A stretch of 64,000 nt of DNA, taken from NCBI GenBank assembly GCA_963821525.1, contig CAWGED010000019.1, positions 652,449-716,448 on the forward strand, written 5' to 3'. The DNA is from an uncultured Gemmatimonadales bacterium (GTDB lineage: Bacteria; Gemmatimonadota; Gemmatimonadetes; Gemmatimonadales; GWC2-71-9). Position numbers and translations under genes: made by a program. Of this stretch, positions 2,865 to 60,732 are shown in pieces (within the stretch, counting starts at the first letter, position 1; each line of letters starts with the position of its first letter). The notes below the pieces were generated by a model. That model searched no databases. It was not told where the DNA came from and saw nothing but the letters and a program-made list of their open reading frames with translations.

Positions 2865-3001
2865 GGTGAACGGCGAACGGGGAGTGTCATCCGAGCGAGC
2901 GTAGCGAGAGAGGAATCCCAATGCGTGGTCTCACGGCCAGGCACGAGATTCCTCGCTTTGCTCGGAATGACAACTGTCTTCCTTCCCGTTCACCGTTCAC
3001 C
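2865..3001. repeat. heptamer-arm palindromic junction element E1 with inner conserved-core hairpin
   Basis: Outer arms GGTGAACGGCGAACGGG (2865-2881) and CCCGTTCACCGTTCACC (2985-3001) are complementary with 1 mismatch. The inner arms are GTCATCCGAGCGAGCGTAGCGAGAGAGGAATC (2886-2917) and GATTCCTCGCTTTGCTCGGAATGAC (2947-2971). Confidence 0.8.
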
Positions 3002-3012
3002 GCTCCCGCTTT

Positions 3013-5574
3013 CTAAAACCGAAACCCCGTCCCCACCGAGAAAATCGTCCCCTCCTCGCTGTGCGCCACGTCCAACCGCGCCACGACTTCGTCGAGCCCC
3101 GGCAGCCAGCCTAAGGACGGCGACGCCCAGAGTCCCCCGCCGAAGTCGGCGTGAAGTTTGGATGACGATTCTCCCTGATTCCACACTCTGCCCCCGTCGC
3201 CGAAGGCGAGGACACCAAGATCGGCGGAGATGAAGTTGACGTTGAAGCGGAACATTCTCACCCGGGTCTCGATACTGCCGTAGGCCGAGCCACGGTCGCC
3301 GGAGAAGCGGTCGGTGCGAAAGCCGCGGAGGGTAAGTGGACCACCGACGCGCGCGGCCTGGCGGAAGGGCGGCGCTCCGGTGAGCAGGACTCCACCCAAT
3401 CGTGTCGCCAGCACGAGGCGGCGCGATTGGCCGATTCCCCAGAGCGCCCGTCCTTGCGCGGAGATGCGACCGAATCCTCCCTGGTCCAGATCCATCCAGC
3501 CCGGAGCGCCGATCACCTCGAGGATTGCCTGGTAGCGCACCGGCTCTCGGACCGACTGGAGCGTGGAGTATTCCAGGCTTCCGCCTACGCCGGCGAAGCT
3601 GAAATTCCCGGAGCCGTAGGGATGCTGTTGCGCGATGAGCGTGGTGCTGCCGGTGGTGTCGGTGCTGCCGAACGAGATGAAGGGGCCCGCCTTGAAGGCC
3701 AGCTCCCGCCGGGAGGAAATCGAGATGCCGGCACCCAAGGCGACCTCGCGGACCTGGACCTCGTAGAAATCCTGATCTCTGGTTTGTTGAGTCTCGTTGC
3801 CGTAACCGAAGAAGCGCACCACGTCGATCCCCGTAGCCTTGCCCGTTAGTAAGAGGTGGAGATTCCTCAACACGTCCCGACGCTCGAACTCCAGAAGCAC
3901 CCTCGCACCCGCCGGCTTGGTCGCGAAGGTGAACGCACCTCGGAGCTGCTGGCGATAATTCTTCTCCTCGAAACCTTGCCAGTCGCGATGGGCGCGGATC
4001 CCCGCCACGACCCCCAGGTCTGCACTGTATCCCAGCTGTACCCCGGACTTGGTCGCAGCGCCCCAGTCCATCGGCTCCGGCGGATAGCCATCGCGCTCCC
4101 ATCGGATCCGACGGCCTGTGGCCCGTGGCACCACCCGCACTCCACCCGGCGGATCCACCCGGGTGCTATCGGACTCGGCGTAAAGCACCACCCGTTTGGT
4201 GGAAGGCCCTTCCCGCTCGAGGGCCACATTCCCCGAGCGGGAGGTGATGCGCACTCCCGTTCCCCCGTGTTCAACTCCAATGAGCTGGACAGAATCCTGG
4301 CCGCCTTCGAGGTGGAGTCTTATCTCCTCCGTCTCTTCGCGGGAGAATTGGCGATGAAAAGTCTCGACTCCGCCGGCCACGGCGAGGATCTCCACGGCTC
4401 CCTTGTCGGACCGCCGGACGGTCACCTTTTCGTCGGCATCAGATAGGACCAAGTCCGGGTAGTGATTGATGATGTAGTAGAACTGCTTGACGATTTTGGG
4501 CAGCAGGTCGCGACGAGACGCGATCCCGGTGAGGAGGAGCGACTGGGAAGCCACGCGTTGCGACTCGGGGAGCAGCGCGATGGCCTCCTCGATCCGATCG
4601 TTGGTCAGCGATTGAGCCAGCGCGGATGACACGCTGTCCCATGCGGGCCGATCGAGCCAAACCAAAAGCTGGCGGTCGAGGTCATATCCTCGATCGACCA
4701 GCGGCCCCACCTTCGGCATCTTCGGACCAAAGACCTGGTGGCCTGGTTCGTACTGGTTGAGGACCGCCGCGTTCCAACCCTGAGCGCGAAGGAACGCTTC
4801 TTCCTGACGAATCGCGATCGGCACCCAGCGCCCCACACTGCCGCTATCCGCCGCCAGGCCCCAAAGCCAATGCTCGGGACTTCGGTCGCGATCGCCGACC
4901 AGTACGTCGAGGAGACGGGAGGCGAGATACCGCTCCGTCGCGACTCGGGTCGTGGGATCGAGCCGAAGTTGCTCGAGCAATGCGGCCGTGGTGATCACCC
5001 GTGAAAACCTGCCGTAGGGCTCCCCGTCGAGCTCGGGAGCCCCCTCGACCCAGACCGGCCGGCCTCGCAGCGAATCGAGGAGATGGAACGAGTCGGTCGC
5101 AGCGCGGAGAACCACCAGCATCGGCTGAATCGCGTCCAGGCCGACACGCTGATACAACCCAGCTGCCACGAGCGGAGCCGTGGGGTGTACGTTGGCGACG
5201 AGATCCCGAAGGAGATTGTTGAACTCGGTATCGCGCAGGTTCCTGGGCAGCAGCGCGGTGACGGGATCTCGATCTACCGGAAGGATTCGAAGTGCCCTGC
5301 CGTCTGCTCCTCGCGCGATGACGACGTTGCCGAGGGGTCCGTTATCCGGCGCGAACGTGACCTGTCCCCCACCGAGCTGATCGGCGTTGGCCACCGTCAG
5401 GCACACGGTATCCGCCCAGAGCGCACGCCATCCCGCCCCGCGCGCGAGACCCGGGCCCTTGGGCTCCGCCAATCGCGGGCTGAGAACGACCGCGGCGGAG
5501 TCGGGAGGCTCTCCCGACGGGCGTTGAGTACCGCTCGCGGCAACGCAACCGCCGACAACCAGGAGCCAGAGCAA
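3013..5574 (-). CDS. Omp85/surface-antigen (D15) family outer-membrane protein with a large uncharacterised N-terminal region
   Basis: 853-aa ORF. The C-terminal ~300 aa have a beta-barrel pattern ending ...VARLDVAHSEEGTIFSVGTGFRF (terminal aromatic residue). The start is uncertain. TTG at 5574 gives MLWLLVVGGC. An ATG at 5599 in another frame would give a better signal peptide, but only if there is a 1-nt indel. Confidence 0.7.
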   Translation of the reverse strand: MLWLLVVGGCVAASGTQRPSGEPPDSAAVVLSPRLAEPKGPGLARGAGWRALWADTVCLTVANADQLGGGQVTFAPDNGPLGNVVIARGADGRALRILPVDRDPVTALLPRNLRDTEFNNLLRDLVANVHPTAPLVAAGLYQRVGLDAIQPMLVVLRAATDSFHLLDSLRGRPVWVEGAPELDGEPYGRFSRVITTAALLEQLRLDPTTRVATERYLASRLLDVLVGDRDRSPEHWLWGLAADSGSVGRWVPIAIRQEEAFLRAQGWNAAVLNQYEPGHQVFGPKMPKVGPLVDRGYDLDRQLLVWLDRPAWDSVSSALAQSLTNDRIEEAIALLPESQRVASQSLLLTGIASRRDLLPKIVKQFYYIINHYPDLVLSDADEKVTVRRSDKGAVEILAVAGGVETFHRQFSREETEEIRLHLEGGQDSVQLIGVEHGGTGVRITSRSGNVALEREGPSTKRVVLYAESDSTRVDPPGGVRVVPRATGRRIRWERDGYPPEPMDWGAATKSGVQLGYSADLGVVAGIRAHRDWQGFEEKNYRQQLRGAFTFATKPAGARVLLEFERRDVLRNLHLLLTGKATGIDVVRFFGYGNETQQTRDQDFYEVQVREVALGAGISISSRRELAFKAGPFISFGSTDTTGSTTLIAQQHPYGSGNFSFAGVGGSLEYSTLQSVREPVRYQAILEVIGAPGWMDLDQGGFGRISAQGRALWGIGQSRRLVLATRLGGVLLTGAPPFRQAARVGGPLTLRGFRTDRFSGDRGSAYGSIETRVRMFRFNVNFISADLGVLAFGDGGRVWNQGESSSKLHADFGGGLWASPSLGWLPGLDEVVARLDVAHSEEGTIFSVGTGFRF

Positions 5575-5626
5575 CGCGGGATTCCGGGAAGGTGTTCATT
5601 AGTGAGAGCAGAATAACAAAAGCGCG

Positions 5627-5756
5627 AAGGGGGAAAAGGGAACAGGGGAAAAGGAACGGTGGACCTCGCTTCGCTCGAGATGAGGTGGTCCCTCACCTTT
5701 CCCTTCTTCGATTCCCCTGTTCCCGGTTCCCTGTTCCCTTTTCCCGCTTTTCCCTC
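5627..5756. repeat. heptamer-arm junction element E2 (GGGAACA type) with single core motif
   Basis: The left arm is a GGGAAAA GGGAACA GGGGAAA AGGAACG array. The right arm is a pyrimidine mirror that includes CCCTGTTCCCTTTTCCC (5729-5745). The centre carries GGACCTCGCTTCGCTCGAGATGAGGTG (5661-5687). Confidence 0.75.
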
Positions 5757-5773
5757 ACTATACTTGTCCCCAC

Positions 5774-5855
5774 GCGAACGTGGCGGAACTGGCAGACGCG
5801 CAGGACTTAGGATCCTGTGGGGTAACCCTTCCGGGTTCGACTCCCGGCGTTCGCA
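5774..5855 (+). tRNA. tRNA-Leu (anticodon UAG)
   Basis: Acceptor stem GCGAACG/CGTTCGC. Anticodon stem CAGGA/TCCTG with loop CTTAGGA. Long variable arm. T arm CCGGGTTCGACTCCCGG. Discriminator A. No encoded CCA. Confidence 0.92.
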
Positions 5856-5868
5856 CTCAACGACTTAG

Positions 5869-5893: not shown

Positions 5894-6308
5894 CGTGGAT
5901 ACGGCTGTTGCATGTCACTGTCGCCGTGGGAAAGGCCGTTGCTCAGGCCCGACTCCTTAGCCGAGGAACCTGCTGGCCCGCCCGCGCGGGCCGAGGTGTC
6001 GTTCGTCCCGTCGAGCGTGGCGCTGAACAGCGCCACTAGCAAGATCGAGATCCGAGGAGAGCTAGCCCGTGGGCAGGGCGGAGACCACCGGAGAGCGTCT
6101 GGTTGTGGGTTTACTTCATGAATCCGACCGAGACGTACAACGGGCAGCCCATGGGCGGGGGCCGGTCCGACGAGCCCATTGAACTGGTTCATCCATTCGG
6201 CGCAGGGGACACGGCGCGAATTATGGCGCGCGGTCCATTCCATTGGGCGACCAACTCGGACGCCCCGCAGACCGACTCTTACGCCCGCTCTCGGTCGGCG
6301 CGCTCGGC

Positions 6309-7763
6309 TTACGGCGTAGCCGCGACCGCCGCGGCCGCGTTGAGCAGGCCCGCGCCCGTCGCGTCGGCGCCCCAGCAGATCTCTTCCGGCGGCGGAGAGA
6401 GCGGCACCAGAATGACCTGCCGGCACCCCGCGCCCAGAGGCACCGCCGAGCCCTCGATGATCGACTCGGCCTGTGCCTCGGTCAGGGTGGGGTTCTTCTG
6501 CAGCATCAGCGCGATGGTGCCGGTCACGTGCGGCGCCGCCTCCGAAGTGCCGCCGAGGAAGAAGAAGTCGGTCTGGCCGCGCTGGAGCTGATACGGCCCA
6601 ACGACCCACGAGCCCGGGGCGGCGATGTCGAGATCCTGCCCGTTGAGCTGCCGGCCGGAGAAGGCGGTGATGTAGAAGTCGCTCACGCTGGTCGGGTCGC
6701 CCACGTCCTGAGTGAACCACCAGTTGATATCCGGCACCCACTCGTGGGTCCAGCCACTCGCGGCTGCGGAGATGACCTGCGGCAGTGCGCCGGGGTAGCC
6801 CATGCCATTCTCACCCCCGTTGCCGGCGGAGAAGACCAGCAGCACTCCCTGTTGGAGCGCGAAGTTGACGGCGGCCTCGACCAGGGGGTCGTTCCCCCCA
6901 CTGCCCCAGCTGTTGTTCACCACCAGCGGCTGCCCCGCGAGCGGCCCCTGCTTGAGCTCCGCGAAGTAGAGCAGGCCCGCGGCCGCGACCGAGCTGGGGA
7001 AGCCGCAAGGGCTGGGATTCTGCGACGTCGGGCTCCCCTGGGTGCTGAGCTTTACCGGGATGACCGTCGCCTGTGGCGCGGTGCCCTGGAACCGCACGGT
7101 ACCGACGACCTGATACCCCAGCACCGTGCTGGTCACGTGCGTGCCGTGGGCACAGACGTCGTGCTGCCAAGCGTCGCCGGCCCGCTGGGTGACGTTGCCC
7201 GCGTCAACCGCGCCGCCGCCGGTGAAGGTGGTGGCGTACTGGGTGGCGATGCGGTCGGTGGGGAAGTATTGCGGCCAGGTGTAGAGCAACCCGGTGTCCA
7301 GGATGCCGACCCAGACGCCGGCGCCCGTCTGCACGACACCCCGCGTCGCGCTCAGCGGCGAGACGGTCGCGTTGATCGCGTCCTGATCCCAAGTGCTGAA
7401 GCCACCGGTAAAATCCGAGACGGGCACGAGAGGGGTGTTGGGCGGGAAATCGATCTCGGCGTCGAGTGCCGCGCCCTTGACGAAGGGCAGGGCCTTCACC
7501 GCAGCGAGCTGGCCGGCCATGGCCGCCAAAGTGAGGCCGTAGATCTGCGGGAACTGCTTCTTCACCCGGCCGATCGCGTTGAGCTGCGCGAGCTGGGCGC
7601 TCGTTGCCTTGCCCTTGAGGACGACGTTGATGCCGACTTGGCCAGAGGATGCGGCGGATGCTAACGACTGCGAGGAAGGAGTGGCGGGTTGGGTGGTCTC
7701 ATCGCTACAGGCAGCAAGCAATACGAGGCAGCCTGCTGCGAGTGTAAGGAAGCGGGAGTTCAT
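6309..7763 (-). CDS. subtilisin-like serine protease (peptidase S8), lipoprotein
   Basis: Catalytic triad contexts ILDTGL, CAHGTHVTSTV and GGTSEAAPHVTG. The ATG at 7763 gives MNSRFLTLAAGCLVLLAAC (lipobox) and is preceded by GGAGG. The ORF track extends to 7871. Confidence 0.88.
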   Translation of the reverse strand: MNSRFLTLAAGCLVLLAACSDETTQPATPSSQSLASAASSGQVGINVVLKGKATSAQLAQLNAIGRVKKQFPQIYGLTLAAMAGQLAAVKALPFVKGAALDAEIDFPPNTPLVPVSDFTGGFSTWDQDAINATVSPLSATRGVVQTGAGVWVGILDTGLLYTWPQYFPTDRIATQYATTFTGGGAVDAGNVTQRAGDAWQHDVCAHGTHVTSTVLGYQVVGTVRFQGTAPQATVIPVKLSTQGSPTSQNPSPCGFPSSVAAAGLLYFAELKQGPLAGQPLVVNNSWGSGGNDPLVEAAVNFALQQGVLLVFSAGNGGENGMGYPGALPQVISAAASGWTHEWVPDINWWFTQDVGDPTSVSDFYITAFSGRQLNGQDLDIAAPGSWVVGPYQLQRGQTDFFFLGGTSEAAPHVTGTIALMLQKNPTLTEAQAESIIEGSAVPLGAGCRQVILVPLSPPPEEICWGADATGAGLLNAAAAVAATP

Positions 7764-8027: not shown

Positions 8028-8882
8028 ATGTTCAAGTCCGGTAGCCTGTGGCCTGCAATCCTCGCGACTACCCTCGCGGCCCAGGGCTGCAACCGGGTCA
8101 CCAAGAACGTCTCCTACGATCCCGCCGGCACCGACTCGCTTACAGCACTCGACATTTACCCGCCGAGGTTTGGCGGGCATCATCCGGTCGTCATCTTCAT
8201 TCACGGCGGAAGCTACGTCGAGGGCGACAAGAACACCGAGGTGGGCGCCAAGCCCAAAGCGTTCGCCGGCGAGGGATACGTCTTCGTCGCCCCCAACTAC
8301 CGCCTGTCTCCCGCGGTCAAGCACCCGGTCCACATCCAGGACGTCGCCAAGGCCATCGCCTGGGTGCACCATAACATCGGCCGCTACGGCGGTGACTCCA
8401 CCCGGCTCTTCGTCTTGGGCCATTCCTCCGGCGCCAGCATGGCAGCACTCATCGCCACCAATGAGCGTTACCTGAAGGCCGAAGGCCTGGATCTCTCGTC
8501 TTTGAGCGGGGCGATCCTGCTGGATGGCAGCGCCTATGATATCCCGCGCCGATTCTCCGAGGATTCGGCCGACGCTCATCGCCTGCTCGCCATCTTCGGC
8601 GACGATCCCGCGGTGTGGGAGGAGGCCTCCGCGCAGTATCACTGTCAAAAGAACAAGGGCATTCCGCCCTTCCTGATGTTCTTTCTCACCGCGCGCGCCG
8701 GAGGCACCCAGCAGTCTCAGGCCCTGGCGGGTGCCCTGGCCACAGCCGGGGTAAAAGTCGAGATCAAACCGATTCAGACCGTGGGGCACTACAAACTGAA
8801 TCTGGAGCTGGGGCTGGAAACGGATCCCGCCACTGCGGACGTCTTCTCGTTCCTGGAGACCTACAGCGCTCGGGGACCCTGA
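8028..8882 (+). CDS. alpha/beta hydrolase (carboxylesterase-like), lipoprotein
   Basis: Oxyanion motif VIFIHGGSY and nucleophile elbow GHSSGA. The ATG at 8028 gives MFKSGSLWPAILATTLAAQGC (lipobox). An alternative ATG lies at 7992. Confidence 0.8.
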   Translation: MFKSGSLWPAILATTLAAQGCNRVTKNVSYDPAGTDSLTALDIYPPRFGGHHPVVIFIHGGSYVEGDKNTEVGAKPKAFAGEGYVFVAPNYRLSPAVKHPVHIQDVAKAIAWVHHNIGRYGGDSTRLFVLGHSSGASMAALIATNERYLKAEGLDLSSLSGAILLDGSAYDIPRRFSEDSADAHRLLAIFGDDPAVWEEASAQYHCQKNKGIPPFLMFFLTARAGGTQQSQALAGALATAGVKVEIKPIQTVGHYKLNLELGLETDPATADVFSFLETYSARGP

Positions 8883-11380: not shown

Positions 11381-13314
<1,934 letters not shown>

Positions 13315-13318
<4 letters not shown>

Positions 13319-13957: not shown

Positions 13958-14185
13958 GGAAAGCGGGGAACGGGAACAGGGAACGGGGGGGAAAGGTTAC
14001 GAGCTACACCAGCACCTCATCCCGAGAGCCTGCCCCGAGCGCAGCGAGGGGAGCGTAGCGACGAGGGACCTACTAACCGAGCCATTGCGCATTGGCCAGG
14101 ACAGTAGGTCCCTCGCTGCGCTCGGGATGAGGTGCTCCTAATACTTGTCCGGTCTCCCTTTTCCCCCTCAGTCCTCGGTCCTTTC
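13958..14185. repeat. heptamer-arm junction element E3 (GGGAACA type) with inner conserved-core hairpin
   Basis: Outer arms GGAAAGCGGGGAACGGGAACAGGGAACGGGGGGGAAAGG and CCGGTCTCCCTTTTCCCCCTCAGTCCTCGGTCCTTTC. The inner right arm is GTAGGTCCCTCGCTGCGCTCGGGATGAGGTG (14104-14134). Its complement lies at 14013-14073, interrupted by internal duplications. Confidence 0.8.
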
Positions 14186-15159
14186 AACTTCTCGCTGAGG
14201 TTCCCCACCACCTCTCCACTCCCTCGAACGTCCTCCCCGCCACCAGCATCGCCGTCGACAGCACGTCCGCCTCGATTCCGCTGCGAGCCTCGACACTCAC
14301 CTGCACCATGCGATCCGCGGGATAACCGGTCGCAGGATCCATCACGTGGCCGCGGACTACGGCACCGTAGCGAATCACCGACATCGTGTTGGCGCTGGTC
14401 GCGAGCGCGCGGTCCCGCAGGACACCGGCGGGCCGGGAAGCCCCTGAGCCGGTCGGATCGGCCAGATCCACCCGCCAGCCTTCCTGACCCGGCGGCGCGC
14501 CCAACGCGATGCAATCACCGCTCACATCGATGAAGGCTCGCTCGACTCCGCGGGCCCGTAGCACACTCGCCGCCCGGTCCAGACCATAGCCCACTCCGAT
14601 CCCGCCGAGGTCGAGCTGAGTCACGGCGGAGGGAAGTGTCACTCGGTCTCCATCGATCAGCATCACACTGGCTCGTACCGCCTTCTCCGCTTCCCGGAGC
14701 TCCATCGCGCCGGGCGGCGCTTTCCTCGGCTCACGGAAACCCCAGACCCGCATCAACGGCTCGACTCGCGATATTGAATGCCCCGCCCGTCGAGCGTCGA
14801 GCACGAGCCGCGGCGCTGAGCACCTCGAGCAGGTCCCCATCCACCTTCATCGCCGACTTCCCGGCGTGACGGTTCATCTCGGAGAGGTCGCTCGCGTCAT
14901 CGAACCGGGAGAGCCGGCCTTCGACGCGACGCAGCTCCGCCAGGGCCAGAGCGGCGGCTTCAAGGCCGGCAGCCTCGGACTCGTGGAAGAGCATCAGGTG
15001 AACCGGCTGTCCCATGGCCCAGGACCAGCGTTCTACCAGGCGGGAAGGCGGGGAGGCGGGAAGGCGGGAAGAAGCGCTCATCAGACCGGCCGACCGACCG
15101 CCTGACTGACCGACCGCCATCACCGCCCCCAGCATCGACACGAAGTCCCGGCGGTTCAC
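14184..15159 (-). pseudogene. apbE: FAD:protein FMN transferase (ApbE), frame-disrupted as sequenced near 14765-14770
   Basis: The N-terminal frame (14731..15159) has a Tat-like MNRRDFVSMLGAVMAV and ends ...TGGAFNI. The C-terminal frame (14184..14840) continues VEPLMRVWGF...DLGGIGVGYG. One extra base separates the frames. GTGA overlap with the upstream gene. Confidence 0.8.
15039..15070. repeat. octanucleotide tandem array GGCGGGAA x4 inside apbE
   Basis: GGCGGGAA GGCGGGGA GGCGGGAA GGCGGGAA. It encodes SRLPASPPSR just after the signal peptide on the minus strand. Confidence 0.8.
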
Positions 15160-15662: not shown

Positions 15663-16141
15663 TGGAGTTTGCCCGCCGCGTGCCACGCGGTGAGATCGGC
15701 GACCGCCTTGCGGACGGCCAGGGTGACGGAATTCACGCTGATCGTTGCTCCCGAGATGGACCGAATGTCCTTCCCGACTTCCATGGGATCCTGCGCCGTC
15801 TTCCCCCGGAATTGCTTGCGCCACGAGTCGTACGCCACCTCGCCGCCGTAGGGCTCGCGGTAGACCAGGATATCAACGTCCTTCAGGTGATCACCCGGAT
15901 CCACCGCGACCAGAAACGTGATGGGCTGGTCCTTCCCCTTCACATTCCGCACGACGGCATACCCCAGCAACGAATCGGCCCGCTCGACCCGAAGCACCGG
16001 CGCATCATCCACCTTGACGGTGTCGGCGCGGGCTCCATCCCCGAACACCCGGGCGAGACTCGCCTGGAGCTTCTTGGCGGGGGCGTCCTGAGCGGTGAGA
16101 GGTGAGAAGTGAGACGTGAGAAGGACAAGACTCACCGCCAC
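15659..16141 (-). CDS. FMN-binding domain protein (periplasmic, flavinylation target type)
   Basis: The C-terminal IRSISGATISVNSV matches the FMN_bind S-G-A-T flavinylation motif seen in NqrC/RnfG-type proteins. GTG start. The first codons lie inside repeat E4. Confidence 0.7.
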   Translation of the reverse strand: MAVSLVLLTSHFSPLTAQDAPAKKLQASLARVFGDGARADTVKVDDAPVLRVERADSLLGYAVVRNVKGKDQPITFLVAVDPGDHLKDVDILVYREPYGGEVAYDSWRKQFRGKTAQDPMEVGKDIRSISGATISVNSVTLAVRKAVADLTAWHAAGKLQ

Positions 16142-16232
16142 GAATCGGCGCGCATAGAAGGCGATTCACGGGTTACTCGTCATTGGCGATTCCTCGTGTT
16201 TCCTCTCACCTCTCACGCTCTCACGTCTCACG
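16094..16232. repeat. heptamer-arm junction element E4 (GTGAGAN type)
   Basis: Left arm GGTGAGAGGTGAGAAGTGAGACGTGAGAAGG (16094-16124). Right arm CCTCTCACCTCTCACGCTCTCACGTCTCACG (16202-16232). Four heptamers per arm. Confidence 0.85.
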
Positions 16233-18433: not shown

Positions 18434-20455
18434 GTGCGATCGCGCCGGCGTTCCTTGGCACTGGAGCAGGACCGGAGCCAGCTCGCCCTCCAGCTCGACC
18501 GCCGCATCAACGAGATCTTCTCGCTTCAGGAATTGAGCTACGTGCTGGCCGAGTCGCTCCAGCTCGAGCGAGTGGCCGAGCAGGTGGTGCGCTACACCAT
18601 GCGGTTCCTCCAGGCCGACGGTGCCATCGTGATCCTGGCGGCGGAGGATGGCAGCAGCCTGATGGTGGCCGGCGCCGAGGGTTCGTTATCCGCTCTCAGT
18701 GGCCAACGACTCGCCGCCGATGACGCGACACTGGTGATGCGGGCGCTGCAGAACGAGCGGATCGAAGTCGAGCAGGATGTCTCGGGAGAGGGTGTCCTCC
18801 TGATCGGCGATGCCAGGGCCCAAATCGCCGCGGCCGCTCCGCTCCGCGCCCATGGATTTGCGATGGGCGCTCTCGCGGTGGCGGGCCACCGTTCGGGCAG
18901 CTTCGGCCCCGAGGATCTCTGGCTCCTGTCTACTGTGGCGACGCATGTCGCCGTGGTGATGGCCAACAGCCGGCTCTTCGAAATGGTGCGGCAGGCGAAA
19001 GAGGAGTGGGAAACCGCGTTCAACTCACTCGCCGAAGGCATCGCCGTGGTTGATGAGAAGGGCCGGATCAGTCGCGCCAATCGTGCCTTCGCGCGGATGC
19101 TCGATTCCCCTCTCCCTACCCTGATCGGCCGGAACTTCTGGCCGACCGTGGTCGGAGACAGCGAAGGGCCCGGCGATCTCTTCGCCGCCGCGAGCCGGGG
19201 AGAACGACCCTCGCCGGTCATGGTCCGGAGCGAGGTGCTCCACCGGATGCTGCGACTCACCGCGGCTCCACTTTCCGAGCCGCTGGACGGCACGGCGACC
19301 GTCATCCTCATCGAGGATGTGACGGAGCAACGGGCGCTCGAGGCCCAGCTCATTCAGAACGAAAAGCTGGCGGCGGTGGGGCAGCTGGTCTCCGGCGTCG
19401 CCCACGAGCTCAACAACCCGCTCACCTCGATCGCGGGACTGTCGGAGTTCCTGCTCGAGCGAAAAGATCTCCGGGCGAGCGACCGGGAGCACCTGCGGGT
19501 GGTGCACGAGCAGGCCGCGCGTGCCGGACTCATCGTACAGAATCTGCTGACCTTCGCCCGGAAGGAGACGCCCGAGCCGGCCGGGGTGGACTTGAACACC
19601 GTGGTGGAACGCACCGCGTTGCTCGTGGCCTACGACCTCCGGCTCCGCGGCATCGAGCTGGACCAGAAGTTGAGCACCGAAGAGATCAGCGTGAAGGGAA
19701 ACCGCTACGAGCTGCAGCAGGTGCTGCTGAACCTGCTGACCAATGCGACCCACGCGATCTCCAAGCTGCACCCTGACGCGGCGCGCCGAATCACCGTCGA
19801 GACATTGAGGGATGGCACCCAGGCGGTGCTCCGGGTACGGGATACCGGGCCCGGCGTGCCGCAGCAGCTCGTCTCCCAGCTCTTTACCCCGTTCTTCACC
19901 ACCAAGGACCCGGGCGAGGGAACCGGGTTGGGCCTCTCGATCAGTTACGGGATCGTCGAGTCACACGGCGGCCGCCTGAGCTATGCGCCTGCTGTTGGTG
20001 GGGGAGCCGAATTCACCGTCTCACTTCCCCACGTGCCTCATGGGGGAGAAGCGCCGGCGGTTCAGCCCGCGGGCCTCGAAGGGCTGCCTCGGGGGAAGGC
20101 TGGGCGCTCCATTCTCGTCGTGGATTCGGACCGGGCAGTCCATCGCACGGCGGTGGCACTCTTCGGCATGGCTGGTCATCGCGTGGTCAGCGTGCTGACC
20201 GGCGACGAAGCGATGCCGCTCGCGCAGGAAGGGGAGTATGACCTGGTGCTGGCCGATTCTCGCGCGACGATGAAGGGGGAAGGATTCGTGACCCACCTGC
20301 TGGCCGCGCGACCCGGGTGGAAGAGCCGGGTGGTTCTCACCGTCCCGGCCGATACCAGTTCGGTCCAGCTGCAACGCGAGGGATTCAGAGTCGTGGAGCG
20401 GCCGATCACCGTCCGCCAGCTGAGCGCCGCGGCGCAGGCACTGCTCGAGGGCTAG
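18434..20455 (+). CDS. hybrid sensor histidine kinase (GAF-PAS-HisKA-HATPase-receiver)
   Basis: H-box [16 protein letters not shown]1 and G2 boxes ([32 protein letters not shown]). C-terminal receiver-like ILVVDSD...LVLADS. An in-frame hydrophobic helix at 18371-18433 has no canonical start codon. Confidence 0.85.
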
Positions 20456-22698: not shown

Positions 22699-22714
22699 GG
22701 TAGAAAGGGAGGCA

Positions 22715-24485: not shown

Positions 24486-24486
24486 A

Positions 24487-24599: not shown

Positions 24600-24601
24600 T
24601 G

Positions 24602-25821: not shown

Positions 25822-25823
25822 AC

Positions 25824-39344: not shown

Positions 39345-39375
39345 TTAATTCCCGCTCTGCCTGGAGCCGCATCCA

Positions 39376-41175: not shown

Positions 41176-41179
41176 AAAG

Positions 41180-41333: not shown

Positions 41334-43159
41334 TACTCGACCGTCACACTCTTCGCCAGGTTCCTCGGCTGGTCCACGTTGCAGCCGCGGCGGAGCGCCA
41401 CGTAGTACGAGAAGAGCTGCAGCGGGACGATCGCGAGGATCGGCGTGAGCAGATCGATCGTCTCCGGGATGGTGAAGGTTGCGGTGGCGAGACGGCTGAT
41501 CTGGTCGTCCCCGTCGTTCTTGATGGCGATGACCTGGCCGCCGCGAGCCCGGACTTCCTCGACGTTGGAAATGATCTTGCCGTGCACCGCGTCGCGCGGC
41601 GCGATGAACACGACCGGCATGTTCTCGTCGATCAGCGCGATGGGTCCGTGCTTCATCTCCGCCGCCGGGTACCCCTCGGCGTGGATGTAGGAGATTTCCT
41701 TGAGCTTGAGGGCACCCTCGAGCGCCACCGGGAAATTGACTCCCCGTCCCAGGTAGAGCGCGTTGTTGGTGCGCCAGAACCGCTCGGCGAGCGCTTCGAC
41801 TTCGTCCGACCGATCCAGGATCGTCTGCACCTGCTCCGGCAGAGCCCGCAGCGCCTGGATGATCTGCCGGCCCTGCAGAATGCTCAGGTTGCGGAGCCGG
41901 GCGAAGCGCAGCGTGATCAGAGAGAGCGCGATCACCTGGCTGCTGAACGCCTTGGTGCTCGCGACACCCACCTCGGGACCGGCGTGCAGATAGATACCGC
42001 CGTCCACTTCGCGGGCGATGGTCGAACCCACCACGTTCACGACTCCGATGGTCCGGGCGCCGCGACGCTTGGCTTCGCGGATGGCGGCGAGCGTGTCCGC
42101 CGTCTCACCCGACTGCGAGATCCCGATGACCAGGGTGTGATCGTCCACCACCGGATTCCGGTAACGGAACTCGGAGGCGTATTCCACTTCGACCGGAATG
42201 CGGGCCAGCTCCTCCAGCATGTACTCGCCAATCAGGCCGGCGTGCCACGAAGTGCCGCAGGCGGTGATGACGATCCGGTTGATCCGCTTGATGTCGTCGT
42301 CGGTGAGGTTGAGGCCCGAGACCCGTGACGTCCCCTCTTCCTCGAGCAAGTGACCCCGCATCGTGTTCCGAACGGTGTCGGGCTGCTCGAAGATCTCCTT
42401 CAGCATGAAATGGGAATACCCGCCACGTTCGATGGTGGCGATGTCCCACTCGATGCGGTTGACCGTCTTCTCGATTCGGGTCGCGGCCAGGTCCCGCACG
42501 TGATAGCCCTTCCGGTTCAGCACCACCATCTCGCCGTCATCGAGATAGACGACCGAGCGGGTGTGGGCCAGGATGGCGGAAGCATCGGAGGCGACGAACC
42601 ACTCGTTCTCTCCCACTCCAACCAGGAGGGGAGATCCCTTCCGGGCGGCGACCAGGACGTCGGGCTCTTCGGAGCAGATCACCGCGATGCCGTAGGCGCC
42701 GTCGACTTCTCTCAGCGCCTGGGCTACGGCTTCCTCGATGTTGCCGTTGTAGCACTCGCCAACCAGGTGGGCGAGCACTTCGGTATCGGTTTCGGACTTG
42801 AAGGTGTGACCGCGCTGCTCGAGCGCCCGGCGGATGGCGCCGGAGTTCTCGATGATCCCGTTATGGATCAGCGCGATGCGGCCGGTCTGGTCGGTGTGAG
42901 GATGCGCGTTCGGCGTGGTCGGAGCACCATGCGTCGCCCAACGAGTGTGGCCGATGCCGAGGCTTCCCTTCGGCATGGCTCCTTCGAGCTGCTTCTCGAG
43001 TGCGGAGAGTTTCCCGGCCTGCTTCATGACCGTGAGGCCGGCCCCGTTCACCACCGCGATTCCTGAAGAGTCGTACCCGCGGTACTCCAGCCTTCTCAGC
43101 CCCTCCAGCAACAGGCCCGCAGCCTGGCGGGGGCCCACATATCCCACAATGCCACACAT
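41333..43159 (-). CDS. glmS: glutamine--fructose-6-phosphate aminotransferase
   Basis: The ATG at 43159 gives MCGIVGYVG (N-terminal nucleophile Cys). SIS domains. C-terminal ...NLAKSVTVE. Confidence 0.93.
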   Translation of the reverse strand: MCGIVGYVGPRQAAGLLLEGLRRLEYRGYDSSGIAVVNGAGLTVMKQAGKLSALEKQLEGAMPKGSLGIGHTRWATHGAPTTPNAHPHTDQTGRIALIHNGIIENSGAIRRALEQRGHTFKSETDTEVLAHLVGECYNGNIEEAVAQALREVDGAYGIAVICSEEPDVLVAARKGSPLLVGVGENEWFVASDASAILAHTRSVVYLDDGEMVVLNRKGYHVRDLAATRIEKTVNRIEWDIATIERGGYSHFMLKEIFEQPDTVRNTMRGHLLEEEGTSRVSGLNLTDDDIKRINRIVITACGTSWHAGLIGEYMLEELARIPVEVEYASEFRYRNPVVDDHTLVIGISQSGETADTLAAIREAKRRGARTIGVVNVVGSTIAREVDGGIYLHAGPEVGVASTKAFSSQVIALSLITLRFARLRNLSILQGRQIIQALRALPEQVQTILDRSDEVEALAERFWRTNNALYLGRGVNFPVALEGALKLKEISYIHAEGYPAAEMKHGPIALIDENMPVVFIAPRDAVHGKIISNVEEVRARGGQVIAIKNDGDDQISRLATATFTIPETIDLLTPILAIVPLQLFSYYVALRRGCNVDQPRNLAKSVTVE

Positions 43160-43173: not shown

Positions 43174-44553
43174 CTATACCATGAGTTCGCGGCAAGCCGA
43201 CACCAGTTGTTCGGCTGCTTCGGCGGTTGGCGCTTCGGCGATGAACCGCACGATCGGCTCAGTTCCCGAAGGCCGAATGTGTACCCATCGGTCCTCCCAC
43301 GCGAGCCGCAGTCCATCGCGAGTGTCCGCTACCGCATCACTGAATCGCGCGGTCAGCTTCGCGTACACGGGAGCCAAGTCCTTGCCCCGCTGTCCCTTAG
43401 CCTTAACTATCCGGTACTGCGGCTGCCCGGCGACCAACCGGGAAACAGCCTGCCCGGATCGGGCGAGCAGGTGCAAAATTAGCGCCACACCCACTGGTGC
43501 GTCACGCCCAATGTGGAGTGCGGGCAGAATCACACCACCGTTGCCTTCACCCCCGATTACCGCCCCCTCATCCCGAATCGCGCGAGCGACGTTCGCCTCA
43601 CCCACTGCGGCGCGGACGAAACGGGCGCCACACATCCGGGCGGCATCCTCGACCACAAGACTGGTGGAGAGGTTGGCGACGACCACCGGCGGACCGGCGG
43701 ACCGGCGGACCGGCGGAACAGCGGACCCATCGAGAACAGAGCGCACCGCGAACGCCAAGGTGTAGTCCTCGCCGATCGGACGCCCCGTTTCATCCACCAG
43801 GGCCAGTCGGTCTACATCGGGATCCACCGCCAGACCAATCACCGCACCGCTCTCGCGAACCAGCCGGGAAAGCTCGCCCAGATTCTCGGGGAGTGGCTCG
43901 GGCGCCCGGGGAAATTTTCCGTCGGTCTCCAGATTGATTCCGGAGACTCGACATCCCAGCCGCTCCAACAGCTGGGGAATCGTGGTTCCACCAGCGCCGC
44001 GAACACAATCGAGCGCCACGGTGAACTTTTTCGCCCGGATCGCTTCGACATCCAGACCGGGAAGCGCCAAGACCTGTTCGAGATGCCGCTTGATAGCATC
44101 ACGATCTTCGCGATACTGGCCAACTCCCTCCCATCCGGTGCGAGCCGGCCCCTGTTCGGCGAGGGCGCGGACCGCATTGCCGGCGGCGCCGTCGAGGAAG
44201 ATCCCGTCGGGACCGACGAACTTGAGGGCGTTCCACTCGATCGGGTTGTGACTCGCGGTGAGAATGAGCCCGGCCCCGGCGTGGTGATGCTCGACCGCGA
44301 GCTGCACGGTGGGCGTCGGTACTACGCCGACATCGATGACCTCGACGCCCACCGACATGAGGCCCGCCGTGGCGGCTCGGGCGTACATCGGCCCGCTGGT
44401 GCGCGCATCCCGCCCCAGGACGACGACCGGCTTGCCGTTCTGCCGGGCCCAGTCACCAAGGGCCGCGGCATGGCGCGCGACGAGTTCGGGTGTCAGGTCC
44501 TTGCCGACAATGCCACGCATGCCGGAAACGCTGATCATCAATGTGTCGGACAT
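43174..44553 (-). CDS. glmM: phosphoglucosamine mutase / phosphohexomutase family
   Basis: SGMRGIVG and the TASHNP phosphoserine loop. Lies directly upstream of glmS. Confidence 0.85.
   Translation of the reverse strand: MSDTLMISVSGMRGIVGKDLTPELVARHAAALGDWARQNGKPVVVLGRDARTSGPMYARAATAGLMSVGVEVIDVGVVPTPTVQLAVEHHHAGAGLILTASHNPIEWNALKFVGPDGIFLDGAAGNAVRALAEQGPARTGWEGVGQYREDRDAIKRHLEQVLALPGLDVEAIRAKKFTVALDCVRGAGGTTIPQLLERLGCRVSGINLETDGKFPRAPEPLPENLGELSRLVRESGAVIGLAVDPDVDRLALVDETGRPIGEDYTLAFAVRSVLDGSAVPPVRRSAGPPVVVANLSTSLVVEDAARMCGARFVRAAVGEANVARAIRDEGAVIGGEGNGGVILPALHIGRDAPVGVALILHLLARSGQAVSRLVAGQPQYRIVKAKGQRGKDLAPVYAKLTARFSDAVADTRDGLRLAWEDRWVHIRPSGTEPIVRFIAEAPTAEAAEQLVSACRELMV
43685..43724. repeat. 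octanucleotide tandem array ACCGGCGG x4 (+1 degenerate) inside glmM
   Basis: ACCGGCGG occurs at 43685, 43693, 43701 and 43709, followed by AACAGCGG. It encodes AVPPVRRSAGPPV on the minus strand. Confidence 0.85.
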
Positions 44554-44716
44554 GGGCGGAAAGGTAGGAGGGGCGGCGGAGTGACGGTATGGTGCTAAGG
44601 TGGTATGGCTGGAGGGCGGACAGGGCGGACAGGCGGCAAGCGGACGGCGTAAGTCGCGGCTGCAAGTCCCTCACTACCACCATCCCGCCCTCCCGCCGTC
44701 CGCCCTACCGCCTACC
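44554..44716. repeat. junction element E11 (GGCGGAC type, G-rich/C-rich arms)
   Basis: The left arm includes GGAGGGCGGACAGGGCGGACAGGCGGCAAGCGGACGGCG. The right arm is CCCTCACTACCACCATCCCGCCCTCCCGCCGTCCGCCCTACCGCCTACC. It runs from the glmM start codon to the stop of the next gene. Confidence 0.7.
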
Positions 44717-54269: not shown

Positions 54270-54412
54270 GGCAGGGAGTAGGTTGTAGGGTGGTGGGGAG
54301 TGGGGCGTGTACCTGTCGCTCGACTTGTGACCACAGGCTCCAGACTCCAGACTCCAGACTCCGACTCCCTACTCCCTACTCCCTACTCCCTACTCCCCAC
54401 TCACCCACAACC
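54270..54412. repeat. heptamer-arm junction element E12 (GGGAGTA / CCAGACT / CCCTACT type)
   Basis: Left arm GGCAGGGAGTAGGTTGTAGGGTGGTGGGGAGTGGGGCG. The right arm is CCAGACT x3, CCGACT, CCCTACT x4, then CCCCACTCACCCACAACC, and it ends at the GTG start of the next gene. Confidence 0.88.
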
Positions 54413-54413
54413 T

Positions 54414-58828: not shown

Positions 58829-58937
58829 GGGGATTGAAGATTCGAAAGATTTAAGATTTCAAATTGAACAGCCTCTAGGTCGCATATCCCTTCTGATGCG
58901 CCCAAATCTTCAATCTGAAATCTTAAATCTTCAATTC
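58829..58937. repeat. heptamer-arm junction element E13 (GATTGAA type)
   Basis: Left arm GGGGATTGAAGATTCGAAAGATTTAAGATTTCAAATTGAA. Right arm AAATCTTCAATCTGAAATCTTAAATCTTCAATTC. A 15-nt core AGATTTAAGATTTCA is complementary between the arms. The element overlaps the ubiX stop. Confidence 0.85.
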
Positions 58938-59515
58938 TCTCCCTTCCAACTTTTCCCAACGTCCACCTCCACCCCCAGCTGATCGATGACTCGCTGCACC
59001 ACAAAATCCACCAGCTCGCCGATCTGGGTCGGGCGGTGATAGAAGCCGGGTGCCGCGGGGATTACGACGGCGCCGGCTTCGGTGACCGAGACGAGGTTGC
59101 GGAGATGAATCAGGGAGAGAGGAGTCTCCCGGGGGACCAGGATCAGCTTGCGCCGTTCCTTGAGCACCACGTCCGCGGCACGCTCGACCAGTGAACGGCT
59201 GGTGCCGCCCGCGATCGCCGCCACGGTGCCCATCGAACAGGGACAGATGACCATCCCGGCGGTCTTGACCGAGCCCGATGCCGGTTTGGCGCCGCGATCG
59301 TCGTCGGGGTAGACCGTGACACTGGACCAGTCTCCTCCCGTTACCGCGCGGAGCCCCGCCTCATCGTTGATGCCGCACTCGGCGTGGAGCAGCCTCCACC
59401 CATGACTGGTTACGATCAGCCAGACGGGGAGTCGGTGACGCGCCAGAAGCTCCAGCAACCGCACGGCGTATGGCGCCCCCGAGGCACCGGTGATCGCGAG
59501 GACGATCGGCAGCAC
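58931..59515 (-). CDS. ubiX: flavin prenyltransferase UbiX family
   Basis: ITGASGAPYAVRLL ... PCSMGTVAAIA. The UbiX/Pad1 pattern holds throughout. Confidence 0.9.
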   Translation of the reverse strand: MLPIVLAITGASGAPYAVRLLELLARHRLPVWLIVTSHGWRLLHAECGINDEAGLRAVTGGDWSSVTVYPDDDRGAKPASGSVKTAGMVICPCSMGTVAAIAGGTSRSLVERAADVVLKERRKLILVPRETPLSLIHLRNLVSVTEAGAVVIPAAPGFYHRPTQIGELVDFVVQRVIDQLGVEVDVGKSWKGEN

Positions 59516-59715
59516 AGCTCAGCGTCCGCGGCGATTTGCCGTAGGGTTCCTCACCGGGTGGCTTGGCGGGGGTGGCGGGGGTAGCTGGTCGCCGGGGAGC
59601 GACTCCTTAGTTCCTCGCTTGCCCTTCTGCGGATTGGGAGTCGTCCGCCTCCAGAATATGGGACTCCTGTTCTGTCTTCTTTCTTCGCCTGCTCATGGCT
59701 CTCCTCTCAGAGTGT

Positions 59716-60648
59716 TCATACCAGCCTGTCCACCAACGCGAATCCAAACACCGTGAGGCTCATGATGCCGTTCATCGTGAAGAAGGCGGCATCGAGCCGC
59801 GACAAATCGCCGGGCCTTACCAGCCGGTGCTCGTACGCCAGAATCAACGCCGCTGCACCCACACCGACATAGAACCAGGCGCCGAACCCCGCCCCCAGCC
59901 CGAACAGCACCAGGGCGGGAATGGTGATCCCGTGCAAGAGCTTCGCGAAGAGAATACTTCGCTTTTCACCGAGTCGCACGACCGCGCTGCGGAGTCCTTC
60001 ACCCTTGTCGAACGCCTGATCAGGCAACGCGTAGAAGATGTCGAACCCAGCGACCCAGGTGGCGACCGCGAGACTGACCGCGATCAAGGTCCACCAGGGG
60101 CTGCTCCAGGCCCCGGTGATCGCCAGATATCCTCCCACCGGAGCAATTGCCAGACTCATTCCCAGCCACAGGTGTGGCCACCAGGTGAATCTCTTGCTCA
60201 GGCTGTACAGCATGACCCAGCCGAGTGCGAGCGGGCTCAGGTAGAGACAGAGACGGTTGAGACCGGCTGCAGAAGCGACGAAGAGCGCGGCAGCGATGAC
60301 GACGGAGACCCAGGCCTGAGCAACACTCAGCGCCCCGCGGGGAAGCTCCCGGTTTTGAGTCCGCGGATTTCGCGCGTCGAACTCCCGGTCCACGATCCGA
60401 TTGAAGGCCATCGCCACCCAGCGCGCCGCCGAGAACGCAATGACCACGAGGCCTACCTGCCGCCAGGTGACGCCACGCTGAAACGATGCTTCGAGAACAC
60501 CGAGCAGGGCGAAGGGGAGCGCGAAGAGGGTGTGGGGCAGCTTGACCAGGTTGGCATAGCGAACCAGCAGGGACTCGCCGGCGAAGGTCTGGCCTTCCCG
60601 CCCGACCGGCAGTCGATGGTCAATAGTCGATGGTCGATGGTCTTTCAT
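59716..60648 (-). CDS. UbiA-family aromatic prenyltransferase (UbiA/MqnP type)
   Basis: NRIVDREFDARNPRT is the first Asp-rich motif, and the protein has multiple TM helices. The ATG at 60648 lies in the loop of repeat E14, and the first 12 codons lie in its left arm. Confidence 0.85.
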   Translation of the reverse strand: MKDHRPSTIDHRLPVGREGQTFAGESLLVRYANLVKLPHTLFALPFALLGVLEASFQRGVTWRQVGLVVIAFSAARWVAMAFNRIVDREFDARNPRTQNRELPRGALSVAQAWVSVVIAAALFVASAAGLNRLCLYLSPLALGWVMLYSLSKRFTWWPHLWLGMSLAIAPVGGYLAITGAWSSPWWTLIAVSLAVATWVAGFDIFYALPDQAFDKGEGLRSAVVRLGEKRSILFAKLLHGITIPALVLFGLGAGFGAWFYVGVGAAALILAYEHRLVRPGDLSRLDAAFFTMNGIMSLTVFGFALVDRLV

Positions 60649-60732
60649 CGCGATGCCGACCTGCGCTCCTGTTTCCGGATCAAGGGACCATCGACCATTG
60701 ACCACCGACCATTGACGATCGACCACCGACCG
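60610..60732. repeat. heptamer-arm junction element E14 (CGATGGT type)
   Basis: Left arm CAGTCGATGGTCAATAGTCGATGGTCGATGGTC. Right arm GACCATCGACCATTGACCACCGACCATTGACGATCGACCACCGACCG. There is a 13-nt perfect complement at the inner ends. Confidence 0.88.

Follow-up and report, generated by a model that had tools for sequence, protein, structure and literature searches.

Inverted heptanucleotide-array pairs at the gene junctions of a Gemmatimonadales genome, a dense and palindromic case of a reported kind of bacterial microsatellite

Introduction

What fills one gene junction after another in a bacterial chromosome with a long palindrome whose two arms are themselves built from tandem 7-nt repeats? 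The question is raised by a 64,000-nt stretch from the metagenome-assembled genome of an uncultured soil Gemmatimonadales bacterium (contig CAWGED010000019.1, positions 652,449 to 716,448), hereafter termed the window, in which an original prediction made from the letters alone had listed fourteen such period-7 palindromes. The gene content of the window is ordinary housekeeping, including glucokinase, ClpX, his genes, glmS/glmM, dtd, maf, and fpg, and its GlmS shares 99-100% identity with NCBI proteins named Gemmatimonadales bacterium. The fourteen palindromes were confirmed as a feature, and they are the Gemmatimonadales case of an already reported, poorly understood kind of bacterial 7-base microsatellite rather than a new class. 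The feature is real and striking, yet since this kind has been reported from Xanthomonas, cyanobacteria, and Geobacter, it is not categorically new.

Tandem arrays were detected with Tandem Repeats Finder, and the element census covers the 64-kb window. The control consisted of 40 block-wise dinucleotide shuffles of the window, in which merged period-7/14/21 arrays were counted, while junction types were taken from an approximate gene map built on a codon-usage model. The comparison loci from relatives, among them L001-L006 and L127, are 21.8-kb stretches around glmS.

Period-7 arrays and inverted arms

Period-7 arrays of head-to-tail copies were found at 13 of the 14 listed sites, the remaining one (44554-44716) holding period-9 and period-8 arrays rather than period-7 ones. 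At 13958-14185, repetition is confined to the 5' side, in the form of a GGGAAC run with a period of 6/7, and the 3' arm is degenerate. These two sites were regarded as marginal members, and the other twelve are clear inverted pairs of heptamer arrays. Within the fourteen elements, sequence identity reached 0.49, 0.43, and 0.37 at lags of 7, 14, and 21 nt, respectively, against approximately 0.26 outside them. Twenty-seven merged arrays (871 nt) were counted in the window compared with 2.45 ± 1.26 in the shuffles (maximum 7), and composition-matched shuffling therefore fails to give a comparable number.

The arms are period-7 arrays of one unit family in inverted orientation, and the center is either unique or occupied by an ordinary GC-rich hairpin or by a motif resembling repetitive extragenic palindromic (REP) sequences. 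Ungapped inverted arm pairs are 21-39 nt long and 79-96% complementary, and the folding z-scores of the fourteen elements against shuffles range from -1.3 to -12.7, being -3.4 or lower in eleven of them; folding of the plus strand is weak for 24487, 25664, and 44554. The elements are dispersed and mostly intergenic, with fourteen junctions in 64 kb, a density of about one element per 4.5 kb as originally put, and a single clear coding array at 21825-21855. An assembly artefact was ruled out by indel-free copies in ten independent metagenome assemblies of a related population. Period-8 arrays were also observed, at 15038-15116 (AGGCGGGA x4.2) and 43685-43727 (ACCGGCGG x5.4) of the window and at 8513-8565 of the comparison loci L003 and L004 (TTCCGTCC x6.6), the last of which serves as 3' arm in a palindrome that has its purine-rich arm first; the period is thus mostly but not exclusively 7.

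The unit had been described as locus-specific, which was not borne out. The GATTGAA family is present at 22715, 25664, 33949, and 58829, the GGGAGTA family at 24487, 34644, and 54270, and the GGGAAC/GGTGAAC family at 2865, 5627, 13958, and 21825, and GGGAGTA moreover recurs across phyla. At least seven unrelated unit families occur in the 64-kb window.

Position at gene junctions

Of the fourteen elements, nine separate co-directional genes, which are all encoded on the minus strand, four separate convergent genes, and one occupies a divergent-type spacer beside tRNA-Leu. When the window and six related loci were pooled, arrays were present at 10 of 26 junctions between convergent genes, 18 of 106 between co-directional genes, and 2 of 24 between divergent genes, which amounts to an enrichment at convergent relative to divergent junctions (Fisher P = 0.019). 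The elements had been said to abut start and stop codons alike; this holds mainly on the stop side, where they mostly end 0-4 nt off or overlap the codon, as on the start side gaps can amount to 16-71 nt, for instance at 2865, 5627, and 22715. The stop codons of the NUDIX gene (22813-22815, minus strand) and of the Maf gene (34068-34070) fall within the first heptamer units of the adjoining arrays, so that the repeat provides the stop plus the last few codons.

Turnover in related genomes

At approximately 99.9% identity, ten loci from different metagenomes were fetched, and the seven compared base by base showed 9-17 substitutions and 0 indels, hence identical arrays; on this evidence, the behavior of a hypervariable contingency locus was rejected at the population scale. 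At 98.4% identity (L003 versus L004), the units are the same and the copy numbers differ (7.9 versus 16.6, 13.6 versus 5.6, and 12.9 versus 9.9), often through a change in a single arm, as in the first of these pairs, where the other arm stays constant at 4.7. The arms are likewise unequal at the glmS junction of L003, with about 5 units on one side and about 13-15 on the other. At 89.7% identity (window versus L127), the same unit families are found at four shared junctions, where they differ in length and arrangement, and at 85.9% (window versus L001), two of the four junctions carry another unit, GTCGATG replacing GATTGAA or GGCGGAC. Relatives that are 76-79% identical or unalignable (L002, L005, and L006) have few or no arrays and short spacers, and at this distance a junction holds a plain GC hairpin or nothing. 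Unit-wise length variation at conserved positions was accordingly found between related strains, both in the L003/L004 pair and among the window, L127, and L001.

Two junctions illustrate the course of this turnover. Downstream of glmS, L002 and L005 possess a plain GC-rich stem-loop, and in the window, L001, L003, L004, and L127 the hairpin has (AGCCGTC)n...(GACGGCT)n on its two sides. At the Maf/cyclase junction, L002 carries a compact 44-nt perfect hairpin overlapping both stop codons, with GATTGAA-family arms in the window and L127 and GTCGATG arms in L001. The plain hairpin found where arrays are absent indicates that the junction hairpin is the conserved feature, upon which the heptamer arms were elaborated in this lineage and are subject to turnover. 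Arm complementarity proved to be maintained at orthologous junctions, where relatives keep a palindrome even as its copy number and, at a greater distance, its unit type are exchanged.

Polarity of the arrays

The earlier observation that the purine-rich arm comes first in every element except 41180 stands, as it was reproduced in 13 of the 14, with 41180 being neutral (0.49 versus 0.51). Over all fetched loci, complementary neighboring arrays were purine-first in 57 cases, pyrimidine-first in 8, and neutral in 11 (P = 3e-10), and the same polarity was obtained, at 32 to 3, by scoring G minus C. Neighboring arrays of unrelated, noncomplementary units are also G-rich-first (48 to 12). Considered by family, the polarity is 13 to 0 for GGGAGTA, 4 to 0 for GTCATTT, 3 to 0 for GTCGATG, and 3 to 0 for AGCCGTC, the last being the family of the sole exception in the window, whose orientation is consistent in cyanobacteria too. 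As a palindrome is identical on both strands, the polarity belongs to the element and not to the orientation of the genes.

Two causes of this polarity were considered and dismissed. Units carry stop codons at 0.55 observed versus 0.53 expected, which speaks against a need for stops in all three frames, and array-free junctions are biased only mildly (24 to 12, P = 0.065), too little for the 57 to 8 to have been inherited from ordinary hairpins. Possible reasons include a weak pyrimidine-RNA:purine-DNA hybrid 3' of the hairpin, the keeping of C-rich Rho-loading RNA from emerging first, and the addition of repeats to 3' ends at breaks. The last of these recalls a reading of the elements as break-repair scars, in which G-rich heptamers would have extended the two 3' ends left by a double-strand break before these were joined, giving the polarity of a head-to-head telomere fusion. 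The G-rich strands do run 5'->3' toward the center on both sides, even with different units, and the arms are unequal and the centers unique; however, intact hairpins or REP-like palindromes occupy the expected junction point in the center, many units are not G-rich, the copy-number change looks gradual and concerns single arms, and we know of no enzyme candidate. Such scars are, in our estimation, hardly credible.

Relationship to known repeats

The combination had not been recognized in any GC-rich noncyanobacterial genome by the original prediction, a view overturned by the GGGAATC arrays of Xanthomonas (PMC4692102) and the paired sites of Geobacter metallireducens (PMC2700814). In Xanthomonas, Rehm et al. 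(2015, PMC4692102) described 186 GGGAATC arrays of 2-26 units, approximately 90% of them intergenic, among which 70-75 pairs are convergent on opposite strands and able to form stem-loops. These arrays lie on average 28 nt from the end of the upstream open reading frame (ORF), are rare between divergent genes, and are conserved in position between species with variable length and sequence (PMC4692102). The elements of the window share with them a GC-rich noncyanobacterial host and intergenic, position-conserved, inverted pairs of 7-nt arrays near the end of the upstream ORF, and here too arrays on opposite strands, with their G-rich strands convergent, occupy one spacer. Among 19 neighboring array pairs in Gemmatimonadota loci, 12 were inverted, 2 direct, and 5 unrelated. 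The two cases differ in that Xanthomonas possesses one dominant G-quadruplex-capable unit at about one array per 27 kb, whereas the window holds its seven or more families at about one element per 4.5 kb. The GGG-N4 quadruplex unit is not general here, for GGGAGTA and GGGAACA fit it and GATTGAA, GTCGATG, GTGAGAN, and CAGCCGT lack a G3 run; as units without G-runs behave like the G-rich ones, G-quadruplexes fail as a general explanation.

The proposed link to the short tandemly repeated repetitive (STRR) sequences of cyanobacteria, the heptanucleotide repeats of Calothrix and Nostoc as cited in PMC4692102 and PMC4679880, was upheld by the abundance of (GGGAGTA)x3 in filamentous cyanobacteria and many other phyla. 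Both consist of tandem 7-nt units scattered between genes, and in both a genome carries several types of unit; arrays of GGGAGTA and CAGCCGT/CAGCTAT occur in Nostoc, Okeania, Moorena, Rivularia, and others. In contrast with the elements of the window, the cyanobacterial arrays are mostly unpaired: 34 of 161 neighboring pairs (mostly from cyanobacterial loci) are inverted against the 12 of 19 here, and few inverted heptamer pairs have been reported for Nostoc (PMC4692102). An exact scan for (GGGAGTA)x3 over 185,579 species genomes returned at least 120 stretches in many phyla, and among the matches listed are filamentous cyanobacteria, Planctomycetota, Acidobacteriota, Chloroflexota, Alphaproteobacteria, Nitrospira, and Gemmatimonadales. 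The complete layout of (GGGAGTA)n, unique center, and (TACTCCC)n was also met in Devosia, Terriglobales, Planctomycetota, Stigonema, and Nostoc. Matches to (GGGAGTA)x3 in viral contigs numbered 46, versus 8 and 7 for two same-composition scrambles, and this excess indicates that the unit vocabulary is not random. Furthermore, (GATAGRA)n arrays have been described in Chloroflexus (PMC6749651), and heptanucleotides have since 2007 been noted as the most over-represented long simple sequence repeats in bacteria; Mrazek's finding to this effect and his idea of polymerase slippage or footprint are cited in PMC4692102 and PMC4679880.

A wider reading, which we regard as improbable, would unite these cases into one cross-phylum system, with heptamer arrays written or maintained by a dedicated strand-aware mechanism and not by generic slippage. 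It is drawn from the occurrence of the same units in cyanobacteria, Planctomycetota, Acidobacteriota, Alphaproteobacteria, and Gemmatimonadota, from the roughly 6-fold excess of one unit over same-composition scrambles, and from the almost absolute unit-specific rule that the G-rich strand runs 5'->3' toward the central hairpin even in noncomplementary arrays. Such a mechanism could, for example, consist in a polymerase that extends ends or switches templates where hairpins induce stalls or breaks, or in a conserved factor reading nucleic acid with a 7-nt period.

In Geobacter metallireducens, paired tandem hepta/octanucleotide sites and GGACCGG x4 elements have been annotated as regulator binding sites (PMC2700814). 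They resemble the present elements in having 4-5 tandem units of 7-8 nt at dozens of loci, mostly as opposite-strand pairs, and differ in their fixed copy number and consensus, while variable-length arms or a 3'-end placement are not described there. A comparable role in the window would involve a protein each of whose subunits reads a single repeat unit in single-stranded RNA or DNA, with binding to the first arm to emerge deciding on hairpin formation in an attenuation-like manner. HutP reads UAG-N4 repeats, and TRAP provides a second analogy for such a reader of periodic sites. A cold-shock-protein idea for heptamer repeats was advanced by MacGregor in 2015 (PMC4679880). The near-absolute unit-specific polarity, the preferred unit vocabulary, the identity of (GGGAGUA)n with (UAG-N4)n, the annotation given to the similar Geobacter arrays by their authors, and a Nostoc preprint reporting effects of heptamer repeats on expression are all in keeping with periodic binding sites. 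Nevertheless, at least seven unrelated unit families in 64 kb demand many readers or a nonspecific one, copy number and units change freely among relatives, and no candidate protein was identified, and we consider such a reader quite improbable.

The likeness to REP sequences and bacterial interspersed mosaic elements (BIME), the extragenic palindromes of enterobacteria and pseudomonads with proposed roles in termination, mRNA stabilization, and supercoiling (PMC3733652, PMC3116915), is fair as a functional analogy, in that the elements are extragenic, hairpin-forming, and situated after stop codons between co-directional or convergent genes. In their construction, however, they diverge: REPs are 20-40 nt long, possess a family consensus and a GTAG/CGTC head, and are mobilized by REP-associated tyrosine transposases (RAYT), whereas the present elements have tandem-array arms, no consensus past the unit, and no sign of mobility. 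Membership in REP, as a 20-40 nt palindrome with a genome-wide consensus and the GTAG/CGTC head, was rejected for lack of this consensus and because the centers fail to align; the nested motif GTCATyCCGAGCG... is a candidate in its own right, distinct from the arms. Miniature inverted-repeat transposable elements (MITE) were rejected as well, given unique centers, no flanking duplications, and orthologous junctions that change gradually instead of by presence or absence. A clustered regularly interspaced short palindromic repeat (CRISPR) array was discounted, the units being 7 nt long and directly abutting with no spacers, and intrastrand-triplex (TMECO) motifs (PMC4666352) are a different thing. 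As to Rfam, no family matches the elements: at the gathering threshold and at E <= 1, tRNA-Leu alone passes, and the sub-threshold results were chance matches to microRNA hairpins at 5610-5758 (28-33 bits versus gathering scores of 85-96).

That the palindromes are mobile, as MITE-, REP-, or REPIN-like elements with heptamer-array terminal inverted repeats spread by a transposase encoded elsewhere, might be suggested by the unit families shared among several loci of the window, by the common ending ...TACAACC of three GGGAGTA elements, and by the core motif, widespread in soil metagenomes, of three GGGAAC-armed ones. Against these stand centers that are unique and unalignable save for a 20-nt motif, arm lengths and unit orders that differ among copies, orthologous junctions that retain a gradually changing element, and the absence of REP-defining features; moreover, no target-site duplications were seen in the element sequences and no transposase was present among the 20 window proteins scanned. 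Mobility is accordingly judged very improbable.

Proposed origin and function

The account toward which we lean, with modest confidence, is that slippage-grown microsatellites flank 3'-end or intercistronic hairpins and work like REP/BIME. STRR-type heptanucleotide microsatellites would grow on both flanks of hairpins just past stop codons and would thereby turn short hairpins into imperfect palindromes of 90-230 nt. The arrays would arise through replication slippage of 7-nt units, and the two arms would grow largely independently, their complementarity being preserved by the complementary stem from which they started and perhaps by occasional arm-to-arm template switching. The data fit such unit-wise slippage, which probably affected each arm of an already existing palindrome on its own, the arms being unequal and single arms changing in copy number. 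Other soil contigs (L138, L150, L180, and L198) agree with this in that heptamer arrays flank an unrelated REP-like palindromic motif there. Unit variants follow a weakly mirrored order in the two arms (P < 0.06 in 3 of 12 elements; combined P = 0.01), and the alternative of arms as exact mirror copies from an inverted duplication was set aside as weakly supported.

With lower confidence, the structures may be transcribed within 3' untranslated regions (UTRs) or intercistronic spacers and act like REP/BIME hairpins; where genes converge they would serve to insulate or to terminate in part, and within co-directional strings they would be barriers to decay. The position at stop codons, the enrichment at convergent junctions, and the persistence of the hairpin point toward a REP/BIME-like role or that of a terminator without a U-tract. 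Bidirectional intrinsic terminators consist of an A-tract, a GC hairpin, and a T-tract. The elements resemble them as hairpins between convergent genes with pairing purine-rich 5' and pyrimidine-rich 3' flanks, and 41180 holds such a GC hairpin; they differ in having no U-tract after the stem and in that many of them lie inside gene strings, right before a start codon. The elements are not classical U-tract terminators, and an intrinsic (Rho-independent) terminator was rejected since stems are present with no T-run behind them. In a consensus scan of 22001-42000, none of the 8 sites found matched the main stem-loop of an element, and a weak site at 41199-41180 (minus strand) lies inside the 5' arm array of 41180.

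Several observations weigh against this account. There is no sign of selection on the sense strand (sense RNA more stable in 11 of 18 elements, P = 0.48) or of a G·U strand asymmetry (27 wobble-compatible mismatches in sense versus 31 in antisense), and the stems lack a U-tract behind them. The scanned stretch shows no excess of canonical terminator matches (8 versus 12 ± 3.7 expected). At co-directional junctions, the 3' arm either overlaps the following start codon or ends 0-13 nt from it; as a promoter would find no space in between, efficient termination is unlikely there. Plain slippage, finally, leaves unaccounted for both the G-rich-first polarity on the two strands and the preferred unit vocabulary. 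Selection on the sense RNA through G·U pairs, at which an early 7 of 9 in the window had hinted, was abandoned as the hint vanished with more loci (11 of 18; 27 versus 31). Efficient co-directional termination would shut off the gene that follows, which, together with the missing G·U asymmetry and U-tract, speaks against a strong role at the RNA level. A hairpin through which transcription continues, in an intercistronic spacer or 3' UTR, is therefore favored over a strict terminator.

The missing G·U asymmetry is equally what would be expected of a purely mutational, functionless by-product, in which heptamer slippage and quasipalindrome template-switching act on the DNA at any intergenic inverted repeat and the product is tolerated as junk that is selected out of promoters. 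Unequal and drifting arm lengths, outright unit replacement between 86%-identical genomes, arrays now and then in coding sequence, and the close relatives L005 and L006, which do without arrays and have short spacers, agree with that possibility. By contrast, the palindrome stays at the same junctions despite replacement of its sequence, arrays are enriched at convergent junctions and stable in the population sampled from 10 metagenomes, and the near-absolute per-family polarity across phyla is not predicted by a neutral process. A functionless by-product is thus regarded as doubtful, and the slippage-grown, REP/BIME-like hairpin is retained as the preferred account.

Description of the individual elements

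The element at 2865-3001 has GGTGAAC/GGCGAAC arms at 2865-2884 and 2982-3001 (21 nt, 90%; z -9.0) and lies between the stop of an 853-aa gene (3013, minus strand) and the start of the glucokinase gene (2793, minus strand); its center holds a nested motif pair at 2886-2917 and 2947-2971. At 5627-5756, the sole element in a divergent-type spacer, GGGAAMA/TGTTCCC arms (5627-5663 and 5713-5749; 37 nt, 81%; z -4.6) and a nested motif copy at 5664-5685 are located between the start of the 853-aa gene and tRNA-Leu (5774-5856). The marginal member at 13958-14185 (z -6.1), which adjoins the stop codon of ApbE (14184, minus strand), comprises a period-6-7 GGGAAC run at 13966-13987 and a degenerate, pyrimidine-rich 3' arm around two nested palindromes of the separate REP-like motif (14013-14029/14118-14134 and 14062-14115). 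GTGAGAN/TCTCACN arms (TGAGAGG x4.7 and TCTCACG x4.3; z -5.0) build the palindrome at 16094-16232, between the stop of a porin gene (16233, minus strand) and the start of an FMN-binding gene.

The ATTGAAG/TTCAATC-armed palindrome at 22715-22829 (arms 22715-22747/22792-22824; 33 nt, 94%; z -8.4) includes an inner AAATTGC array at 22756-22782, and its unit order is mirrored (P = 0.026). A GGGAGTA/TACTCCC-armed one at 24485-24599 (25 nt, 80%), weak on the plus strand (z -1.9), ends 2 nt from the hisC stop (24602, minus strand). At 25664-25821, GATTGCN arrays are followed by CAATTAC and TCAATCT arrays (E -30.7 on the plus and -41.1 on the minus strand), ending 2 nt from the stop of a gene for a PilB-like ATPase (25824, minus strand). 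The latter gene (25824-28085, minus strand) encodes a PilB/GspE-type secretion ATPase (MshEN, T2SSE) with a C-terminal response-regulator receiver domain. The palindrome at 33949-34083 (GATTGAA x11 and AAATCTG x5; arms 33991-34025/34046-34080, 35 nt, 86%; z -5.2) separates convergent genes, with the cyclase stop at 33946 and the Maf stop (34068) inside the array, and a GGGAGTA/TACTCCC-armed palindrome at 34644-34737 is placed between the dtd stop (34740, minus strand) and the Maf start.

Between the convergent stops at 41175 and 41333 (the latter that of glmS), the palindrome at 41180-41333 (z -12.7) has outer arms of CAGCCGT/AGCTGTT and AACAGCT/GACGGCT arrays around a perfect GC-rich hairpin at 41245-41279. 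The marginal member at 44554-44716 (z -1.3), G-rich and then C-rich with its period-9/period-8 arrays at 44613-44633 and 44683-44712, is found between the stop of an HD-domain response-regulator gene (HD-RR; 44716, minus strand) and the glmM start (44553), and the approximately 75 nt beside glmM, conserved with a relative, may be a 5' region or promoter. At 54270-54413 (z -3.5), a GGGAGTA-like 5' arm is answered on the 3' side by CAGACTC x5 and then ACTCCCT x5.6, between the fpg stop (54265, plus strand) and a convergent ORF. GATTGAA/GATTTAA and AAATCTT arms (58846-58868/58909-58931; 23 nt, 96%) constitute the palindrome at 58829-58937, which overlaps the stop of the gene at 58931-59515 (minus strand). 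The palindrome at 60610-60732, of GTCGATG x4.4 and GACCATC x6.6 (arms 60612-60642/60686-60716; 31 nt, 84%; z -5.2), ends a single nucleotide from the stop codon of a minus-strand gene (60734-61462). Finally, an unpaired (GAACGGG)x4 array absent from the earlier list lies in coding sequence at 21825-21855 (minus strand), just past the signal peptide of a beta-helix/NosD-like gene.

Nested motif and neighboring genes

The centers of the three GGGAAC-armed elements (2865, 5627, and 13958) hold a separate REP-like palindromic motif, GTCATyCCGAGCGnAGCGAGGrATC (CCTCGCTnnGCTCGrrATGA on the reverse strand), at 2886-2917/2947-2971, 5664-5685, and 14013-14029/14118-14134, respectively. A metagenome scan returned at least 120 matches to this motif, whose copies are often inverted pairs about 60 nt apart; among the matches listed, heptamer arrays border approximately 10 of 155 copies. 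The nested motif has no Rfam match, and a sequence-based literature search for it gave no relevant paper. Two GGGAAC-armed elements also share the string TA(T/A)ACTTGTCC on their 3' side (5757-5771 and 14140-14155), which may be a promoter carried with or beside this element type; within it, 5759-5764 reads TATACT, resembling a -10 box, 9 nt ahead of tRNA-Leu.

Several further observations concern the genes and loci around the elements. The hisF gene (21940-22698, minus strand) is apparently frameshifted near 22060, one frame covering the first 214 residues and another holding the C-terminus ...AASIFHYQG..., and this is either a long-read indel error or a pseudogene; the 748-aa ORF at 20452-22698 is consequently an artefactual fusion with the downstream signal-peptide/NosD-like beta-helix gene. 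The 645-aa ORF at 11381-13318 (plus strand) combines ClpX (zinc finger, AAA, and D2-small; residues 8-388), a low-complexity linker, and an EngB/YihA-type GTPase domain (474-632), and is a genuine fusion unless a stop or a frameshift was missed. In the contig L073, attributed to a Saprospirales metagenome-assembled genome, 560 nt at 6209-6772 contain several GAGTAGG arrays plus TAGGGTT/GTTTAGG, rotations of the plant-type telomere unit TTTAGGG.

Biological significance

The literature found on heptanucleotide repeats offers only speculation on their origin and function, and the Gemmatimonadales lineage provides a dense, multi-unit, and almost fully palindromic example of the class. For annotation, the elements account for many long spacers, stops inside repeats, and over-long ORF calls in such genomes. 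Its close relatives cover all stages, from no array through the plain hairpin to short and long arrays, and so constitute a natural series for the origin and action of the arrays. The polarity rule, which extends across phyla and unit types, is a constraint on any mechanism proposed for heptamer repeats and the most useful new handle on the class.

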